The notes beneath the pieces are model-generated. The model had not been told where the DNA came from and ran no database searches. It saw nothing but the letters and a program-made list of their open reading frames with translations. A stretch of DNA of 20,000 nt from an uncultured virus (IMG/VR IMGVR_UViG_3300009183_000092) (taxonomy: Duplodnaviria > Heunggongvirae > Uroviricota > Caudoviricetes). Below are positions 4,396 through 20,000 of this stretch, in pieces (position 1 is the stretch's first letter; each line of letters opens with the position of its first letter). Location of the stretch: IMG/VR virus record IMGVR_UViG_3300009183_000092; one strand, 5' to 3'. A program made the position numbers and the translations under genes.

Positions 4396-4578
4396 ATGAA
4401 TCAAGAGACAAAGCAATTACCAGTACCATCATTAACACCAGAACATGTTCAAGTATTAATGAATTATGTTAACGAACAATTACCAACTAAGTATGGTAAA
4501 GAAATCCTAGGATTTATTGAAAAAGTAGCATTGGAAGCTGAAAAAGCATCTCAAACAGAAGAAACACAAGCTAGTTAA
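4396..4578 (+). CDS. Small hypothetical protein (60 aa)
   Basis: Has its own promoter and an A-rich leader; stop codon overlaps the stop of the convergent GT gene. Confidence 0.65.
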   Translation: MNQETKQLPVPSLTPEHVQVLMNYVNEQLPTKYGKEILGFIEKVALEAEKASQTEETQAS

Positions 4579-6590
4579 ACACTAGCTTTTTTTATTTCCT
4601 CTATTACCATATCGGCTGTTATTGACCTTTGACATTCAAAGTTCTTATTTCTTGGACACCAATTCCAAAATGGATCTAATTTAATATTAGGGTCATTCCA
4701 ACAGCTATTACACACATCAGGCTTAGTTACTCGGTAGCAATCAAATTCATGGTCTGCTTCGGTAAAATTAGAAATCATGACTACTTTTTGATTCAAAGCC
4801 CATGCTAACCAAGATAATCCACTAGATAATCCAATAAACAATTTAGCCCCTTTAATTACTTCCATTGTATTTTCTATAGATGTATCACTTATTTTATGAC
4901 AATTATCAAATGGGTTATCCTCTTTAGATACATTAACTATATTTTTATACCCTGAATCATATAAATAGTTTATAACCTTTTGCCATCCTTCCCTAGTCCA
5001 AAACTTGCACTCCATTGTAGAATTTGTGGCAATTGCAATATAATCTGGTGCTTTATTACCAAGTATCTCGGTTTTAGTTTTAAGCCTAGGTTTAACTTCT
5101 TCAAATTCTAATCCAAGTATATTGGTAGCAGCTTGCTGTAGTGGTATCGTATTGCATCTTACAGGCTCTTTATTCTCATCCCACTTCCATCCAACCCTAT
5201 ATAAGGCATAACAATTAACCGTAGCCCCAGGCTCAACTAGCTCTAATTCTGGGTAGTCCAGTATTTTATTCCAAAAACTGGACATTACCACATGGCAATT
5301 ATGCTTTTCTTGGAATTTTAAGGCATATCCACTCCATGCAATTGTGTCACCTAGACTCTTACTATCAATTACTATAAAAACCCTCTTATTGGTCAGATTT
5401 AGGGTGTTTTTGTAGATTAAATAACCATCCTGCCAAACCTTAGCTGTCCATGCGGTGAAATATTGCCTGTTTAACTTAACCCAAGAGTTTGCTTTTATTG
5501 TGTTTTCGTAAGCAATACTACCTTTTTCATCTAAAAATTGAACTTTGAAATTACTATCAGAAATACCTTTAATTTCTAAAAATGGGCCATCAACAAAATG
5601 CTGTGTAATTTTTACCTTTTGTTTTTGAATAGGTAATTCTAATAATTTCTTATAAGCTGTTTCATGAGCAAAAGCAAATATTGGTGTGGTATTATCTGTA
5701 GGTACATTGTATGTACATTTTAATGTACGTAAATCTGTATCTATTGGCTGTATGTATTTGGTAAACATATCGCCATATTGAGGTAAGTTTCTAGCTATGA
5801 TAGGTAAACCAAAACTTATGGCTTCGCGTAAAACTAATGGGTTACATTCCCAAGTGCTATTAAACATGAAAATATCAGCCATCTCCATAAAAGTATCAAC
5901 ATCTTTTCTTTCTCCCCATACCTTTACATTATCTGGTATATCTTTCATCAATGGTTCCCAATAATCTTTAAAGTTCCCAGCTTGGGAACCAACAAAATGA
6001 AATGTCATGTTAGGATATTTGCGAGCAATCTCAAGTCCTTCTCCTTGATTTTTACCCCTAGTCCATAAACCCACATTAAGAACATGTTTACCATCTTTTA
6101 CTGCATTTACTTCTTGTTTATCTATTGGATATTGTATTGTAACAAACTTAGATTCCATATTAGAAAATGTTTGCTCATGGTATGGCGTACAAAAAGCATA
6201 TAAATCAGGATAAAATAATTTTTCTTCATCAGGATTAAATGAAATATCATGACACGTTTCTACTATTCTATACTTTCTATTAGGATTATAAAGTTTAGCT
6301 ACCATCTGTCTATCTAATCTTTCTGATGGTTCGTCTATATGAATGATGTCTGGTTGCCACTGCTCAATTACTTTAAATAGCTCCATTTTATCCTCATACA
6401 AAGTAGTAAAGTTTTCTAATAGTAAACTTTTTATGGCATCACGTTGTACCACAAAATCCAAGCTATGACATTGATATTCAACTACATAATATTCATTTTC
6501 GGTATAATCTTTAAGACTTTGTATTCTTTTAAGTATAAATTGCGGGCATCCCCCCGTACTAAGATGCGGTGCTAGAAATAATATTTTCAT
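4575..6590 (-). CDS. Fusion glycosyltransferase: N-terminal GT4 (GT-B) plus C-terminal Aah/TibC-type O-heptosyltransferase (GT9-like)
   Basis: GT4 motifs MKILFLAPHLSTGG, KNQ, ADIF..S.WECNPLVLREA..GLPII. C-terminal half has SKSLGDTIAW, FIGLSSGLSWLAWAL and CNSCWND..WCPR..FECQRSIT. Confidence 0.8.
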   Translation of the reverse strand: MKILFLAPHLSTGGCPQFILKRIQSLKDYTENEYYVVEYQCHSLDFVVQRDAIKSLLLENFTTLYEDKMELFKVIEQWQPDIIHIDEPSERLDRQMVAKLYNPNRKYRIVETCHDISFNPDEEKLFYPDLYAFCTPYHEQTFSNMESKFVTIQYPIDKQEVNAVKDGKHVLNVGLWTRGKNQGEGLEIARKYPNMTFHFVGSQAGNFKDYWEPLMKDIPDNVKVWGERKDVDTFMEMADIFMFNSTWECNPLVLREAISFGLPIIARNLPQYGDMFTKYIQPIDTDLRTLKCTYNVPTDNTTPIFAFAHETAYKKLLELPIQKQKVKITQHFVDGPFLEIKGISDSNFKVQFLDEKGSIAYENTIKANSWVKLNRQYFTAWTAKVWQDGYLIYKNTLNLTNKRVFIVIDSKSLGDTIAWSGYALKFQEKHNCHVVMSSFWNKILDYPELELVEPGATVNCYALYRVGWKWDENKEPVRCNTIPLQQAATNILGLEFEEVKPRLKTKTEILGNKAPDYIAIATNSTMECKFWTREGWQKVINYLYDSGYKNIVNVSKEDNPFDNCHKISDTSIENTMEVIKGAKLFIGLSSGLSWLAWALNQKVVMISNFTEADHEFDCYRVTKPDVCNSCWNDPNIKLDPFWNWCPRNKNFECQRSITADMVIEEIKKASV

Positions 6591-7935
6591 TAAATTGGTT
6601 TAGTTTATTAATATCTTTTTCGCCATGATAGAATAAGTGGTTTTGTTCCAATGGCACTTTTTGCCAATCTTTAATAAAATATTCATAGTTTCTATATTCT
6701 AGTTTATCATGCAATCCATTAATATAACAGTATGGCAATCCTTTATATGCTTTGTAGTCATATAGCATGGTTTGTAGAATTGTTTCTTCGTTGAAGCTAG
6801 CGTATTTAGAGTTGTCCTTTAGTACAACTGGATGATTGCATCTATAATACCAAAGTTCTAAAAAATCAATACAATTTTGCCCTGCTACAAAATATCCTGT
6901 TTGCCTATAACCGGTGTTGTGTCTTTCCATTTGATTTGAACCAAACAATTCACAAGCCGGAGCTTCTAATGTACCACTTAAATCTTCCATACTTTCAGCT
7001 CCACCACGCCCATTAACTATAAGATATTCATATATGCCTTCTGTGAAATAAGGATAGCTAGAATCAGTGTCAAAATAATCAAATATGGTATCTATTTTAT
7101 CAGTAGCAATGCTATCTGTATCAATGTAGGCAACAGTTTCAGCAAAGTTTTCTAATGCGTGAGCTACTATTTTAGGGCGTTCAATTAGTAGTTTATATAT
7201 TTGTTTATCTTCCCTATCAATATATTCTTTTCTTTTCTTTAAATGTATTACATCACATTGCCATTCAATGCTTAGAGTGTTTTTTATATTTACTTTAGTT
7301 TTAGAATTAAGTAGATAAACGAAAATAGGAATATCACTATAACTTCTAATGGAATTACAACAAACATCCACAAGATCCAAATAAGACTCATCAGCATAAA
7401 GTACAAAGGCTTTTTCATGTTTTACTTTTTTGTTTATATAATAGCCATAATAATTATTGCCATAAAGAAGCTCTAAGTCTGGATATCTTTGCTTCATTAT
7501 ATCTGGCGTTAAATCTGGCTGTAAATGGGTTTCATGTGTATTCCCCTCATATTCACCTTGTTCCATTTGATATGGTACTGCAACAATATATTTTTTTTTA
7601 TTTTGTTTTAAAAACAACATTACTAATTGTCCTTCCTCTACTGTCAAATGCTCTAATACATCTCCTAAAATAAAAAAATCATATTTGTCAAGTATAACAA
7701 AATCTATCGCAAGTATGTTTTTATGATAAACTACGTCATATTTTTTCTTTAATTCATATTTGTCTATATATGGTTTCCATATTTCTATTGCATCCATTTT
7801 ATAACCATAACCACGCAATAAATCAGAATAAGTACCACATCCAGCTCCAACATCTAATATTTTAGCATCTAATGGCACATGATTCAAAAACCAATTCCTT
7901 ACAGAATCTTTGTATAACGGGTAACTTGTCGGCAT
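6559..7935 (-). CDS. Class I SAM-dependent methyltransferase fused to a GT-A fold glycosyltransferase
   Basis: ILDVGAGCG and GDVLEHL in the N-terminal part; YIDTDS (DxD), QTGYFV, NEETILQ and FYHGEK in the C-terminal part. Confidence 0.75.
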   Translation of the reverse strand: MPTSYPLYKDSVRNWFLNHVPLDAKILDVGAGCGTYSDLLRGYGYKMDAIEIWKPYIDKYELKKKYDVVYHKNILAIDFVILDKYDFFILGDVLEHLTVEEGQLVMLFLKQNKKKYIVAVPYQMEQGEYEGNTHETHLQPDLTPDIMKQRYPDLELLYGNNYYGYYINKKVKHEKAFVLYADESYLDLVDVCCNSIRSYSDIPIFVYLLNSKTKVNIKNTLSIEWQCDVIHLKKRKEYIDREDKQIYKLLIERPKIVAHALENFAETVAYIDTDSIATDKIDTIFDYFDTDSSYPYFTEGIYEYLIVNGRGGAESMEDLSGTLEAPACELFGSNQMERHNTGYRQTGYFVAGQNCIDFLELWYYRCNHPVVLKDNSKYASFNEETILQTMLYDYKAYKGLPYCYINGLHDKLEYRNYEYFIKDWQKVPLEQNHLFYHGEKDINKLNQFNENIISSTAS

Positions 7936-15208: not shown

Positions 15209-15264
15209 GGTTAATACGAGCTATTTCTAGCTCGTTTCAAGGATTCACCTATCATCAGTTAACC
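15209..15264 (-). ncRNA. Type I hammerhead ribozyme HHR1
   Basis: GGUUAA-CUGAUGA-UAGG[UGAAU]CCUU-GAAA-CGAGCUA[GAAA]UAGCUCG-UA^UUAACC; GUA site, cut between 15215 and 15214; U.U at the base of stem II. Confidence 0.85.
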
Positions 15265-15452
15265 TATGCGATAATATCATCGTGTAGCGCCTCTAATTCA
15301 TTAATCCATCCATTGTACGATATGTCACGACCATCCTCTAGGACAACACATTCAAATGTGCTTTCTAGGTCATCGTTCCACCCATTGGTAATATTTTCTT
15401 GTATTTTAGCTAGGATTTGTTCTAGTCTGATTTTGATTTCTAAATTGGTCAT
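15264..15452 (-). CDS. Hypothetical protein
   Basis: ORF track; the TAG stop overlaps the first G of HHR1. Confidence 0.65.
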   Translation of the reverse strand: MTNLEIKIRLEQILAKIQENITNGWNDDLESTFECVVLEDGRDISYNGWINELEALHDDIIA

Positions 15453-15463
15453 GTTTTTTAATT

Positions 15464-15661
15464 TTAAATAAATCTAATAATAAGATTATTGTTATCAAAT
15501 ATGTTTATGTTAAACATTCGTTCAAATTTTCTTATATCAATGGAATCTCGTTTTTGCCGAATTGATTCCGATATGAATTCATCATCGTTACATGTTAAGC
15601 AACTAAAATTGTCATCCATTTTATCTACATCAATTGAATAGACTTTAATTTGTTCTATCAT
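15464..15661 (-). CDS. Hypothetical protein
   Basis: ORF track. Confidence 0.65.
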   Translation of the reverse strand: MIEQIKVYSIDVDKMDDNFSCLTCNDDEFISESIRQKRDSIDIRKFERMFNINIFDNNNLIIRFI

Positions 15662-15665
15662 AAAA

Positions 15666-15887
15666 TTATTTTAATTGGTTTCTTAATAAATAGGATTCTA
15701 TTTTGGCATGCATGATATCAAATTGTTCCTGCATGAATTCGGTGTATCTGCTACCACCATCGCCATCATCCTCCCAAATTGTTTCAGTTGTATACTCATA
15801 GGTTTGCTTAATAAATAAATCAGCTAGCTCGCAGGCTAATTCATTAATATAGAAAGTTCCTTTTGGTGTTGCGTTTAATGTTTCCAT
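15666..15887 (-). CDS. Hypothetical protein
   Basis: ORF track. Confidence 0.7.
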   Translation of the reverse strand: METLNATPKGTFYINELACELADLFIKQTYEYTTETIWEDDGDGGSRYTEFMQEQFDIMHAKIESYLLRNQLK

Positions 15888-15888
15888 T

Positions 15889-16272
15889 TTATTTAATTTT
15901 AAATTTTGTAAATTGTTTATCTAATTCAAATGCATTCATCCAAGGTAAACTGATAGAATCATCCACAAAATAATTTGTAGGATTACCTAGAATCTCGCAG
16001 TTCCCAATTTCATCAATTTGTTGGGTGCAATATTCTTTGACATCATCATTACCCCAAGTAAGCAAATATCCAATACCCCATATCTCGCAATATGGCTCAT
16101 GATTTGCACTTTCTTGATGGTAGTTGACATCTAAGTCAGTTCCATCCTTTAATTGAAAAGAATGCCAAAAATCACCGGTATCACCGGAGGTTAAATCAAA
16201 CATAAAAACTTGTCCTAGATAATGCAAAGTCAATACTTTGTTATCATAGTCAATAACGAATTTTTTTTCCAT
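15889..16272 (-). CDS. Hypothetical protein
   Basis: ORF track; ATG 14 nt after HHR2. Confidence 0.7.
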   Translation of the reverse strand: MEKKFVIDYDNKVLTLHYLGQVFMFDLTSGDTGDFWHSFQLKDGTDLDVNYHQESANHEPYCEIWGIGYLLTWGNDDVKEYCTQQIDEIGNCEILGNPTNYFVDDSISLPWMNAFELDKQFTKFKIK

Positions 16273-16286
16273 TTTAATTTTGTTTT

Positions 16287-16338
16287 GGTTAATACCGGAT
16301 TGCTCCGGTTTCGGAAATTTATTCCTCGTCAGTTAACC
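16287..16338 (-). ncRNA. Type I hammerhead ribozyme HHR2
   Basis: GGUUAA-CUGACGA-GGAA[UAAAU]UUCC-GAAA-CCGGA[GCAA]UCCGG-UA^UUAACC; cut between 16293 and 16292. Confidence 0.95.
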
Positions 16339-16340
16339 TT

Positions 16341-16604
16341 TTAAATTGTCAATTGCCTATCATTATAGAATGGCTTTAAATCCTCATAGAATGCCTCAAA
16401 TTTTTCTTTATCTACTATGTTGGTGCAATCCACTACAAATTTATCATAGTAGCTTAATTCGTCTCTAATTGCATCATGTAGATATTCAGTTTGTTTTTTA
16501 TCACATTCGTTAACTAACATCTTGAATAATTCATCTGCATCAAATTCCTCTAGGAGATTGCTAATCCATCGCTCTAATTTTTTAGAAGGTATTTTATTTT
16601 TCAT
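16341..16604 (-). CDS. Hypothetical protein
   Basis: ORF track; stop 2 nt before HHR2. Confidence 0.7.
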   Translation of the reverse strand: MKNKIPSKKLERWISNLLEEFDADELFKMLVNECDKKQTEYLHDAIRDELSYYDKFVVDCTNIVDKEKFEAFYEDLKPFYNDRQLTI

Positions 16605-16605
16605 T

Positions 16606-16716
16606 TTACTTATTTTTTTTGAATAATATCATGTAGCATATCTTAATACCAATGGCAATGAATATGCCAAATAATACTAAGTCAAAAATTGCAGTTGCGG
16701 TTTGTAGTGTGTTCAT
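16606..16716 (-). CDS. Small single-TM protein (36 aa; not in ORF track)
   Basis: MNTLQTATAIFDLVLFGIFIAIGIKICYMILFKKNK fills the gap between two genes. Confidence 0.6.
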   Translation of the reverse strand: MNTLQTATAIFDLVLFGIFIAIGIKICYMILFKKNK

Positions 16717-16726
16717 GTTGTTTAAT

Positions 16727-17143
16727 TTAAAATTTTATAAATTGATAATCGTATTCACCTTGATATGCTCCAATAAAAATTGAATCATCGCCTAAGTTTA
16801 TTTCGTCAATCTCTTCGGGGTCTGACAATGTAATTGCGCCACTAATGAGTTTATGAAATTCTTTTTTACTTATAATTGGATGTACTTCATTTACATTGCA
16901 AAATATCATTACACCATAAAGTTTTTCAGCATTGCGAATAAAAGTAAATGAGCCTTGGTCATCACCTTTATCATATGTAATACATCCAATACTTGATTCA
17001 ATATTTTCAGCATTGGTTTGAATGTCTACTAAAGATTCCAAATATTTTTGGGCCTCAGAATCACTAGTAAATTCTTTAATGTAAGCTAGATTATCACTTG
17101 AATAACCTTCTCCGTTCCATGTTTCAGTAATTACGTATTTCAT
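16727..17143 (-). CDS. Hypothetical protein
   Basis: ORF track. Confidence 0.7.
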   Translation of the reverse strand: MKYVITETWNGEGYSSDNLAYIKEFTSDSEAQKYLESLVDIQTNAENIESSIGCITYDKGDDQGSFTFIRNAEKLYGVMIFCNVNEVHPIISKKEFHKLISGAITLSDPEEIDEINLGDDSIFIGAYQGEYDYQFIKF

Positions 17144-17161
17144 GTTGTTTAATTTAATAGT

Positions 17162-17395
17162 TTAATAATTATCTAATTCAGTCAAAATTTCGCCATCAGA
17201 TGAGATAATGCCATTATCTATCAACTGAGATGCGAAACGGCCATAAAAGCCTTGTAATTGCCAACAATCACCGGTTTTGACGAGATATGCCCATGCGCCT
17301 ATTTTTTCTCTAGGTGTAGGCTCATCCTCGCAAAAACCCTCAATAATTGAACAAGCACGATAAGAGTCCATTGGTGTTAATGTTAATGTTTCCAT
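17162..17395 (-). CDS. Conserved small phage protein (WQLQGFYGR motif)
   Basis: LVKTGDCWQLQGFYGRFA; the ORF-track TTG start lies inside HHR3, so ATG 17395 is preferred. Confidence 0.75.
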   Translation of the reverse strand: METLTLTPMDSYRACSIIEGFCEDEPTPREKIGAWAYLVKTGDCWQLQGFYGRFASQLIDNGIISSDGEILTELDNY

Positions 17396-17409
17396 GTTTA
17401 TAATTTTTT

Positions 17410-17460
17410 GGTTAAGACCACCCAAAGGTGGTTTCGGCCATTAGGCCTCGTCAGTTAACC
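17410..17460 (-). ncRNA. Type I hammerhead ribozyme HHR3
   Basis: GGUUAA-CUGACGA-GGCC[UAAU]GGCC-GAAA-CCACC[UUUG]GGUGG-UC^UUAACC; cut between 17416 and 17415. Confidence 0.95.
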
Positions 17461-18354
17461 TGCATAAATTGTCTCAAATAATCTCTCATCCAATGTCCTT
17501 TGTTGGTCAAAGGTTTTTTTCAATTTACCATGAATCAATTCATTGAATGCATTGTATACTATCCATTGGTTAGGTCTAGTATTCAATTGCTTTGTCTCGC
17601 GCTCTACAACATCAAAGATGAATCGTGCATTGGCGCTAGGCTCCGGATTCTTATCAGATGCCTCATATTTAAACAATCCTAGAGTCTTAGCAGTTACTTT
17701 AACGTAATCCTCTAAGTTGTATACCGGTCTCTCTGCAAGCACCTCAAATTTGCGCTTAAGGGTAAAGAATTCATTGTCCATGAACAATTTTACAATCTCA
17801 TCCAATTTAGGCATTACGATGTCGGTAATGGCTCCGCTATGCTTTACTGAGAATCCTATGTGAGTCTGAGCTACGTGTAATCCATTGTCACATACTTTGC
17901 GCCAAAATCCAAAGCTACCACTAGTCTTGCAACTGCCATCGTAACTATTAACGAATCGTAACATAGGGCGTAAAATATCTTTCTCACCTTTAACCTCTAC
18001 TTTGTATCGGTCATCTGCTAGGATATAATCCACTACAAAAGAGCGATTGTCACGATTAATACTACGTTGTTGGTAATAAATGTCCGCATCAATTAACTTC
18101 TCCTCTACTCCTAGGAAGAAAATCTCATTAGGCAAATGGCCATAAGAATTAGATACTACGTTCACGATTTGATTCTCACAAACGATAGCATTCTCCAAAC
18201 CCCTTCTAGACGGGATTCCGGTTAGTTTCTCCAATGGGACTACCTCAGATGTCACTAGAACATCATCTTGTCTAGAATTGGCTAAAAGGTGGCTTAATTT
18301 TGATTCTGCCTCTTGACTAGTTTTTGCTGAAAATTTGTCTTGTAATTGATTCAT
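17455..18354 (-). CDS. DUF932 (DUF945) family phage/plasmid protein
   Basis: VVSNSY..LPN..F, LRFVNSYDGS, FWRKVCDNG..., H.G and W.VYNAFNE motifs. Confidence 0.85.
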   Translation of the reverse strand: MNQLQDKFSAKTSQEAESKLSHLLANSRQDDVLVTSEVVPLEKLTGIPSRRGLENAIVCENQIVNVVSNSYGHLPNEIFFLGVEEKLIDADIYYQQRSINRDNRSFVVDYILADDRYKVEVKGEKDILRPMLRFVNSYDGSCKTSGSFGFWRKVCDNGLHVAQTHIGFSVKHSGAITDIVMPKLDEIVKLFMDNEFFTLKRKFEVLAERPVYNLEDYVKVTAKTLGLFKYEASDKNPEPSANARFIFDVVERETKQLNTRPNQWIVYNAFNELIHGKLKKTFDQQRTLDERLFETIYAG

Positions 18355-18393
18355 AAAATTAGGTCAGTTTTTTATGTGGTGGCTCCACATTAT

Positions 18394-18445
18394 GGTTAAG
18401 ACCATCCGGAGATGGTTTCGCATATTGAATGCTCCTCAGTTAACC
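18394..18445 (-). ncRNA. Type I hammerhead ribozyme HHR4
   Basis: GGUUAA-CUGAGGA-GCAU[UCAAU]AUGC-GAAA-CCAUC[UCCG]GAUGG-UC^UUAACC; cut between 18400 and 18399. Confidence 0.95.
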
Positions 18446-18449
18446 TTTG

Positions 18450-18698
18450 TTACGCTAGTCTAGGTAAAAAGTCCTCATCATCCTCTCTTAATCCATTGTA
18501 ATCGTGTGCAATTGTTTCAATGATTATTAAAGGAGTCTCAGCATTGTTTACCAATTCCTTCAGATTGTCTATGTAAGGACATAGCTTAACTGCTATATCC
18601 ATTTGTGTACGAGGTGATGCTAAATCGCCAACATACTTTTCAATGATTAATAACGTGTCACATAATTGTTCATACTTGTTGCTTAATAATTGTTCCAT
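18450..18698 (-). CDS. Hypothetical protein
   Basis: ORF track; flanked by HHR5 and HHR4; C-terminal HDYNGL....FLPR. Confidence 0.7.
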   Translation of the reverse strand: MEQLLSNKYEQLCDTLLIIEKYVGDLASPRTQMDIAVKLCPYIDNLKELVNNAETPLIIIETIAHDYNGLREDDEDFLPRLA

Positions 18699-18716
18699 GA
18701 TTGTAAATTTTTAATT

Positions 18717-18769
18717 GGTTAAGACCTGCCTAAGCAGGTTTCGGATATTGAATCCATCTTCAGTTAACC
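18717..18769 (-). ncRNA. Type I hammerhead ribozyme HHR5 (extra U after CUGAAGA)
   Basis: GGUUAA-CUGAAGA-U-GGAU[UCAAU]AUCC-GAAA-CCUGC[UUAG]GCAGG-UC^UUAACC; cut between 18723 and 18722. Confidence 0.92.
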
Positions 18770-18773
18770 TAGT

Positions 18774-18911: not shown

Positions 18912-19133
18912 TTAAATGCAATCAGCAAACATTGTAGCAATGCTCATTGATTCGTATGTTTTAATGTTGGTTTGTTTTTCAATATCCAATGCTAATCCGA
19001 TTAAATTTCTAAGTACTTGTTTTTTTGCATCAATACAATCCATTTTTTCAGATTTCCACTCAAGGATGTTTGAACCAATAGATAATAATACTTGTTTTAC
19101 TTGATTTTCGTCAGTTAGGTTAATTTGATACAT
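18912..19133 (-). CDS. Hypothetical protein, first gene of the operon
   Basis: ORF track; ATG 11 nt after HHR6. Confidence 0.65.
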   Translation of the reverse strand: MYQINLTDENQVKQVLLSIGSNILEWKSEKMDCIDAKKQVLRNLIGLALDIEKQTNIKTYESMSIATMFADCI

Positions 19134-19144
19134 ATTATATGTTA

Positions 19145-19200
19145 TTAGGTTTCGCCATTCTGTGGCTCTTCAGTACTGCGAATATTAGCAGTAGACCTAA
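19145..19200 (-). ncRNA. Type III hammerhead ribozyme HHR6
   Basis: UUAGG-UC^UACUGC[UAAUAUUC]GCAGUA-CUGAAGA-GCCA[CAGAA]UGGC-GAAA-CCUAA; cut between 19194 and 19193. Confidence 0.93.
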
Positions 19201-19562
19201 AAGGTCAGGAATTCAATATAAGTAATAACAATGCGCTATAAATCCATATTTCAGTATGGTAGTGCTTTGTCTAATCTAGGTGGTGTTTCTCTTGTATATT
19301 ACTGCTATTCTTTGCGTACAAATAAGCCGCTTAGCTGATTTAATACTTGATACTTGACCGATTGTGGGTTGCTATGCATTGCCGTTGTCCTAACTAGATG
19401 CGGTGAACATCATCGCTTATATCTGCATCCTTTCTAGCTAGACTCTTAGCTACTATATATATTGGAGTGAATCGTTTAGGGCTATTGTGCCGACCTTTTA
19501 CATAGTCTAGAGGTAAGAGGTAGATGTGACCAAACTCAATGGTAGTAAGGGTTTGCTTGATA

Positions 19563-19601
19563 TTTCAAAGAGCGAAGTGCGATTTCGTTTCCCTCAATCG
19601 C
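19563..19601 (-). promoter_or_regulatory. Antitermination signal: hairpin followed by boxA
   Basis: GCGAUU[GAGGGAAACGA]AAUCGC (19601-19579), then CGCUCUUUGAAA (19574-19563), matching boxA GYUCUUURA. Confidence 0.65.
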
Positions 19602-19605
19602 TACG

Positions 19606-19638
19606 CTAAGGTAGTACATTATTTTATATTTGAGCAAA
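19606..19638 (-). promoter_or_regulatory. Main leftward (early) promoter, Bacteroidota type
   Basis: TTTG(19638-19635)-21 nt-TACCTTAG(19613-19606), one mismatch to TAnnTTTG, immediately followed by the hairpin and boxA. Confidence 0.6.
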
Positions 19639-20000
19639 TTAAATAAGTTTTTTTATGATTTTTTCAAGTCTTAACATTTCTTTCACAAATGCCATGCTAT
19701 GGCTTTATTGCGCATTTTAAGACGATTCTAGACACCCCAATTGTTTTTGATATAATTACCAAGGATGCCCCAAGATAATTTAAATTTGAGCAAATTAGAT
19801 TTTTAATTAATACATAACTCATTGACCAAACTAAATCCTTTAGCAATACTAATTCCTTTAGCATCATGCCCATCTCTACCACATCCCCCCCCTTCCTTAA
19901 CATACCAACCAACATATAACCAATGCAAATAAGGTAAGCAATTGCAAGACACCATGACCATAACCATGTCCATGTCCCAACCCCATAAACCAACGCCAAC

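Follow-up and report, generated by a model that had tools for sequence, protein, structure and literature searches.

The DNA analysed here, called the window below, is the whole stretch of 20,000 nucleotides (nt) taken from the uncultured virus IMGVR_UViG_3300009183_000092 of the Caudoviricetes, and its minus strand carries an array of hammerhead ribozymes. Both strands of the window were scanned with a hammerhead descriptor and exactly five type I hammerheads were found. Their cores are at 18763, 18439, 17454, 16332 and 15258, and all five belong to the minus strand. No type I hammerhead was present in 200 dinucleotide shuffles of the window, which served as a control. All five copies have the core CUGANGA / GAAA / NUH and three stems, with stem I open. 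Hammerhead 1 (18717..18769) is predicted to be cut after 18723, hammerhead 2 (18394..18445) after 18400 and hammerhead 3 (17410..17460) after 17416, each at GUC; hammerhead 4 (16287..16338) is predicted to be cut after 16293 and hammerhead 5 (15209..15264), which has a weak stem II, after 15215, both at GUA. In every copy A-GGUUAA lies 5' of the core and UUAACC-A lies 3' of the cut, and no two of the five are alike in stems II and III. A preliminary description, made from the letters of this DNA, had reported five identical type I stems I with cuts 323, 984, 1123 and 1078 nt apart, and the descriptor scan gave the same result; the 3' flank that it quoted for a circle junction at the fourth copy belongs instead to the hammerhead at 18445. 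Hammerhead 1 contains an extra U between A9 and stem II, at 18756 (minus strand), which is common in the lineage. A type III hammerhead (19145..19200, minus strand; loop II CAGAA, core at 19173, predicted cut after 19194), found by the same scan, stands at the head of the array, and its position and loop are unchanged in relatives. The hammerhead models of Rfam gave no match to the window at E ≤ 1. We regard this as a gap in the library for the type I subfamily rather than as evidence against hammerhead identity.

The predicted cuts delimit gene units, which all lie on the minus strand. An open reading frame (ORF) of 73 amino acids (aa) with no family above the cut-off (18912..19133) is found between the type III and the first type I hammerhead. 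The 323-nt unit (18400..18722) contains an 82-aa ORF (18450-18698). The 984-nt unit (17416..18399) contains an ORF (17455-18354) assigned to DUF932 with an E-value of 1.7e-15, as the preliminary description had it, and the stop codon of this ORF is the UAA in stem I of hammerhead 3. The 1123-nt unit (16293..17415) holds a DUF7417 ORF (17162-17395), a 138-aa ORF (16727-17143) and an 87-aa ORF (16341-16604), and the 1078-nt unit (15215..16292) holds four small ORFs of 127, 73, 65 and 62 aa. The first base of hammerhead 5 is overlapped by the stop codon of the upstream ORF. Directly 3' of hammerhead 2 there is a small hairpin (18371-18393, minus strand), which stretches the leader to about 45 nt and recurs in relatives before DUF932 and one further gene family.

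Three samples bear on how fixed stem I is. In sample (a), a pattern with stem I fixed matched at least 134 viral stretches, and the motif is therefore widespread. In sample (b), stem I was left free while a stem II of 4 base pairs (bp) and its U-N3-U loop were fixed, and this gave 177 distinct type I hammerheads from 114 of 131 loci. Sample (c), the lineage of the window, consists of protein-anchored loci; type I hammerheads were present in 41 of 113, the remainder being short or more distant, and it comprises 99 ribozymes. GGUUAA/UUAACC is the commonest stem I in sample (b), yet it accounts for only 23/177. Stem I is 6 bp long in 166/177 of that sample, and among the 175 sequences whose flanks are complete there is a G-C pair at 1.6 in 163 and A/A at position 1.7 in 159, whereas pairs 1.1 to 1.5 each show four to six pair types that covary. 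The length and the ends of stem I are thus explained by structure, but its middle is not, because the inner pairs covary. The alternative named in the preliminary description, that a tertiary contact fixes stem I, may accordingly hold for length and ends but is unsupported for the inner pairs, which vary although the loop II pattern stays constant. Across homologues, stems II and III also vary, each as a hairpin.

Within the lineage the picture is different. The stem I of the window occurs in 93 of the 99 ribozymes, against 18 variants of stem II and 51 of stem III. When loci are compared with one another, stem I has an identity of 0.93, as against 0.11 for stems II and III. That stems II and III vary while stem I is uniform had been claimed at the outset, and it extends to the whole lineage. 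The preliminary description had also asked whether stem I is uniform within a genome and different between related genomes; the first half is right, but stem I is uniform between them too. In sample (b), neighbouring ribozymes have the same stem I in 25/65 pairs, compared with a frequency of 0.039 between loci. The three most variable positions of stem I are common to neighbours in about 19 of 33 independent arrays, whereas the corresponding sharing per array is 6/33 for stem II (Fisher p 0.002 against stem I) and about 10/33 for stem III (p 0.046). Stem I is thus specific to the lineage, and its uniformity exceeds what the ancestry of the hairpins would predict. Two loci illustrate the range in individual arrays. 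At L018 (1300-6060, plus strand) ten type I hammerheads carry eight different, compensated stem I sequences. At L182 (3597-7810, plus strand) there are nine copies that all have the same 3' strand; their 5' strand comes in two forms, distinguished by a G-U wobble, and all copies are cross-compatible. An early reading of the repeats as integron attC-like sites, which came only from a resemblance of motifs, was dropped when the conserved bases proved to be the hammerhead core.

The position of the ribozymes relative to the genes suggests a link to expression. The distance from the predicted cut to the first AUG downstream of it is 17-24 nt in 78 of 109 copies, with a mode of 19-20 nt. With this spacing, the A's that follow stem I fall at -13 to -11; A was found at -11 in 78/78, at -12 in 74/78 and at -13 in 65/78 of these copies. 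An A(-14..-11) motif is described as a positive determinant of translation initiation in Flavobacterium johnsoniae (PMC6847099), and the A's at -13 to -11 agree with it. The presence of the ribozyme is mixed in 8/36 downstream gene families and in 13/35 upstream families, and is thus steadier for downstream genes. On the upstream side, the ORF ends inside the conserved 5' block in 21 of 40 distinct cases, and in ten of these its stop is the stem I UAA. A sigma-70 promoter scan gave 46 sites against 38 ± 5.5 in shuffles and was uninformative, Bacteroidota promoters being outside its model. No terminator-like sites were found at the hammerhead copies.

The preliminary description further supposed that gene units may be reshuffled through the ribozymes. 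Units bounded by ribozymes are indeed swapped among relatives, but the swap is seen in DNA and its breakpoints lie mostly 5' of the ribozyme body. The gene order of the array region differs widely among 44 close loci. In one related phage the 323-nt unit and the body of hammerhead 1 are missing: contigs from four runs of one study (probably DNA, 88% likeness to the window) join 18435 to 18760 in all four runs. The gap is 324 nt, and the joint lies inside an 11-nt block (18760..18770, minus strand, also present at 18436-18446) that is shared by copies 1 and 2 and provides microhomology. What remains after this deletion is the body of copy 2, whereas excision at the cuts would take 323 nt and leave that of copy 1; the 324-nt joint is thus unlike cut-site excision. 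Five clean cases of gain or loss of ribozyme-bounded blocks were read from a list of locus trios, from which we set aside rows that matched neither parent or reflected a missed gene call in L301. The downstream body is kept in three of them (L302, L303 and L141 against L304), and the upstream body in two (the DUF7417 gene in L293/L295/L296, and L333 against the window). The 109 distinct copies, drawn from 42 of 60 loci, include 24 body groups with several members, and these have 29 extra upstream but 18 extra downstream gene families. In 66 pairs of haplotypes with the same body, the downstream gene is common to 24 and the upstream gene to 6. The breakpoints are therefore mostly in the 5' block, ahead of the ribozyme body and not at the cut. 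Trans-ligation of RNA at the cut would bind the body to the upstream gene, and the counts of 24 and 6 lean the other way. The breakpoints are nevertheless compatible with circles as vehicles, because an integrated circular copy could give either pattern.

Statements on the whole genome are based on five related records, which were found through DUF932 (76-91% identity). These records are about 67 kilobases (kb) long, and three of the five have inverted terminal repeats. Among the matches listed, the ribozymes lie at most about 7 kb from one genome end in the three array-bearing records. The best isolate matches are Flavobacterium phages at 56% (11 of 12 records), a Shine-Dalgarno-like motif precedes the start codon in only 1 of 109 copies, and the same stem I occurs in 13 genome stretches, seven of which carry Bacteroidota labels. 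On these indirect grounds we infer a Bacteroidota-type host. When two single ribozymes were compared with isolated phages by blastn, the matches were only partial and at chance level, and thus this search found no cultured phage with such an array. On the chromosome of a cultured Paraflavitalea strain (L388, 2332-2567, minus strand), two type I ribozymes with the stem I of the window lie 175 nt apart in a prophage-like region, with no ORF of at least 60 aa between them.

We consider it probable, at roughly 0.6, that the array serves mRNA processing of an early transcript and that its stem I is held by structure, by overlap with stop codons and by DNA recombination between copies. In this model a single long early transcript, from the end of a Bacteroidota-type phage genome of about 67 kb, would be processed by the six hammerheads. 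The type III ribozyme would trim the leader. Each type I ribozyme would free the message downstream of it, giving it a 5'-OH start about 19-20 nt before the AUG and next to the A-rich initiation motif, and the 3' end of the upstream message would be capped by the ribozyme hairpins and a cyclic phosphate. Ends of these two kinds can slow the decay of RNA. Cleavage in vivo is expected from this geometry, and it may affect both stability and translation of the messages.

Stem I would be kept for three reasons. First, the family as a whole keeps a 6-bp helix with a terminal G-C pair and flanking A/A, which presumably docks on the U-N3-U loop II. Second, the 5' block often provides the stop codon of the upstream gene. 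Third, the conserved blocks are joints for gene exchange between related phages, which proceeds by recombination of DNA. If a crossover falls within a ribozyme, it would bring together stem I strands from two parents, while stems II and III stay local hairpins; therefore, only a standard stem I common to the lineage would keep the hybrids active. Recombination would itself homogenise stem I in addition to any such selection. A small amount of circular RNA may arise as a reversible by-product.

Several observations weigh against this model. Neighbour change was found at 20/72 and 30/82 of the ribozyme junctions and at 69/185 and 64/180 of the plain junctions. Since plain junctions change as often, the ribozymes are no special hotspots and the argument from selection is unproven; the idea that they are recombination hotspots was given up. 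The whole region is hyperplastic, and the ribozymes are joints among others. Local folding predicts the own stem I poorly in three of the five copies (0.01, 0.13 and 0.0), which is a known limit of such folding models but does not count in favour either. ViennaRNA also predicts pairing of the two ends in 11 of 16 short released fragments, and in 7/9 DUF932 units, which are near-identical in sequence, this pairing is above 0.5, against 4/17 shuffles. Finally, cleavage of the array is a prediction and the host is assigned indirectly.

A plainer explanation is common origin with concerted evolution: a founder ribozyme spread, its stem I changed slowly in pairs, and gene conversion kept the copies alike with no selection for compatibility. 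The absence of excess change at ribozyme junctions fits this view, as do arrays with mixed stems I that exist and persist (L231, L197 and L185), and neighbours share stems II and III above background too (ratios 2.9 and 5.5). However, stems II and III are equally paired and have nevertheless accumulated their 18 and 51 variants in the lineage while 93/99 stems I stayed identical, and conversion alone should homogenise the hairpins that lie between the blocks as well. We therefore hold this account to be unlikely.

The preliminary description proposed that the released units may close into circular mRNAs or skip genes by trans-ligation, and it named reverse ligation by the hammerhead and joining by RtcB as known reactions. 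A stronger form of this idea is that a universal stem I is kept because such products, closed by the ribozyme or by RtcB of the host, are what selection maintains; circles of RNA or copied DNA could then also carry genes between genomes. Each of the 74 neighbour pairs in the lineage is compatible with a circle, and the greater sharing of stem I than of stems II and III between neighbours is in line with this proposal. In sample (b), however, a perfect circle junction is possible in 39/65 neighbour pairs, which leaves 26 unable to close a perfect stem I, and a skip junction is possible in 35/65; full cross-compatibility is limited to 14 of 33 arrays. Among the 40 non-identical neighbour pairs, 14 are circle-compatible and 10 skip-compatible, whereas 36 retain their own pairing. 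Change in stem I thus follows the pairing of each ribozyme itself, with no bias toward the circle direction.

The ends of a released fragment can rebuild a hammerhead, as had been claimed, and ViennaRNA finds their pairing feasible in naked RNA, so our prior that end closure is thermodynamically impossible was dropped. For 16 lineage fragments of at most 620 nt the median predicted end pairing is 0.82, against 0.54 in shuffles, but only 10 of the 16 exceed their own shuffle mean. For the 323-, 984-, 1123- and 1078-nt units of the window the values are 0.20, 0.73, 0.025 and 0.005; the 984-nt unit is thus predicted to close well, whereas the last two are predicted to be open. Ligation by natural hammerheads reaches about 10% in vitro (PMC3884650), and RtcB is present in a Bacteroides control genome. 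A ligated circle, however, holds an active ribozyme and so re-cleaves, and neither RtcB nor the reverse transcriptase domain RVT_1 was found in the five related records, three of them at least 90% complete; a reverse transcriptase could still be supplied by the host. The two clean DNA indels that keep the upstream body are those expected from cut-site excision. The pairing models make a small, reversible fraction of circular RNA plausible; that circles or chimeras are the selected product we find improbable. Circles in vivo, if they are real, would be the first ribozyme-made circular mRNAs in a DNA phage.

That a lineage-specific tertiary contact or bound protein reads the entire GGUUAA/UUAACC helix is very improbable: although the helix is invariant in the window, the U-N3-U loop II is conserved and the same stem I recurs in at least 134 viral and 13 genome stretches, family-wide there is free variation in the inner four pairs under the same loop II pattern, and a contact as the cause of all six pairs is unsupported.

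The array is a variant of the known phage hammerhead clusters. In the text of Perreault 2011 (PMC3088659), prophage clusters of hammerheads of mixed type flank single genes or blocks of variable identity, cleavage is shown for three clusters and gene-length mRNAs are proposed. The window array likewise has several copies flanking variable genes in a phage operon. It differs from what that text describes in having five type I copies with one stem I common to the lineage and with no Rfam match, in the visible gain and loss of blocks in DNA, and in its place at a lytic-looking genome end rather than in a prophage. The preliminary description knew of no account of circular or spliced products for a dsDNA phage operon, but the idea is in print: the same paper considered both and states that neither was detected in its clusters, with data not shown there. 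In its 11 text supplements the stem I motif occurs once, in a primer, although alignment files are perhaps absent from them as text. We found no literature in which phage hammerhead clusters give rise to circles, nor any about the exchange of ribozyme-bounded cassettes, subscription papers being outside the search. A 2019 review calls the purpose of phage hammerheads undefined (PMC6765202).

The closest analogue of the reshuffling is that mediated by the PeSL cassettes of T4-type phages (PMC2839356), which are also small repeated regulatory elements between non-essential early genes to which indels map. PeSL is a promoter-terminator unit, whereas the repeat of the window is a ribozyme and shows no hotspot excess; DNA mini-circles have been shown for PeSL, and the array of the window was studied in contigs. 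As in retrozymes and viroid-like RNAs (PMC7761336), successive cuts would free circularisable units with 5'-OH and cyclic-phosphate ends. There, however, the ribozyme copies lie inside repeats around a replicon or retroelement, whereas the units of the window are protein-coding pieces of a DNA phage operon. The array has no direct repeats around a non-coding unit like those of retrozymes, since its bodies differ, being 60-83% alike over short registers, and its units contain ORFs; nor does it resemble an RNA replicon, which usually has ribozymes in both polarities, as the ribozymes are on one strand and the relatives are DNA phage records of about 67 kb. Type I hammerheads in the 5' untranslated regions of RNA viruses, linked to translation initiation (PMC13725137), also cleave directly upstream of a coding region. 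They belong to eukaryotic RNA viruses and are without tertiary contacts, unlike the hammerheads of this dsDNA phage with their conserved stem I / loop II pattern.

The function of phage hammerhead clusters has been open since 2011. The lineage offers a natural experiment on it, with dozens of relatives, a standard stem I, shuffled genes and mappable breakpoints, and it ties each ribozyme chiefly to the start of the downstream gene. It may also suggest a general rule, that the helix spanning a recombining ribozyme is kept to the standard of the lineage while local hairpins drift.

Other features of the window stand outside the ribozymes. A 32-nt AT-rich repeat occurs in three copies between 15883 and 17170 and ends at the start codons of genes that have no ribozyme; such start-region repeats are possible joints at plain junctions. 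The type III cut would set free a leader of about 440 nt with no ORFs (19200-19640, minus strand), which is conserved in part among related contigs. Behind a hairpin in this long non-coding leader, at 19563-19573 (minus strand), is a motif that we take to be boxA-like. Ten of 44 close loci have it too, although duplicates are among them, and most of the others do not reach so far upstream; it may point to host-type antitermination of the early operon. Far from the array, at 4575-7935 (minus strand), lie a glycosyltransferase gene with GT1 and GT9 domains and methyltransferase-like genes, next to a tail-fibre gene with an S74 chaperone domain.

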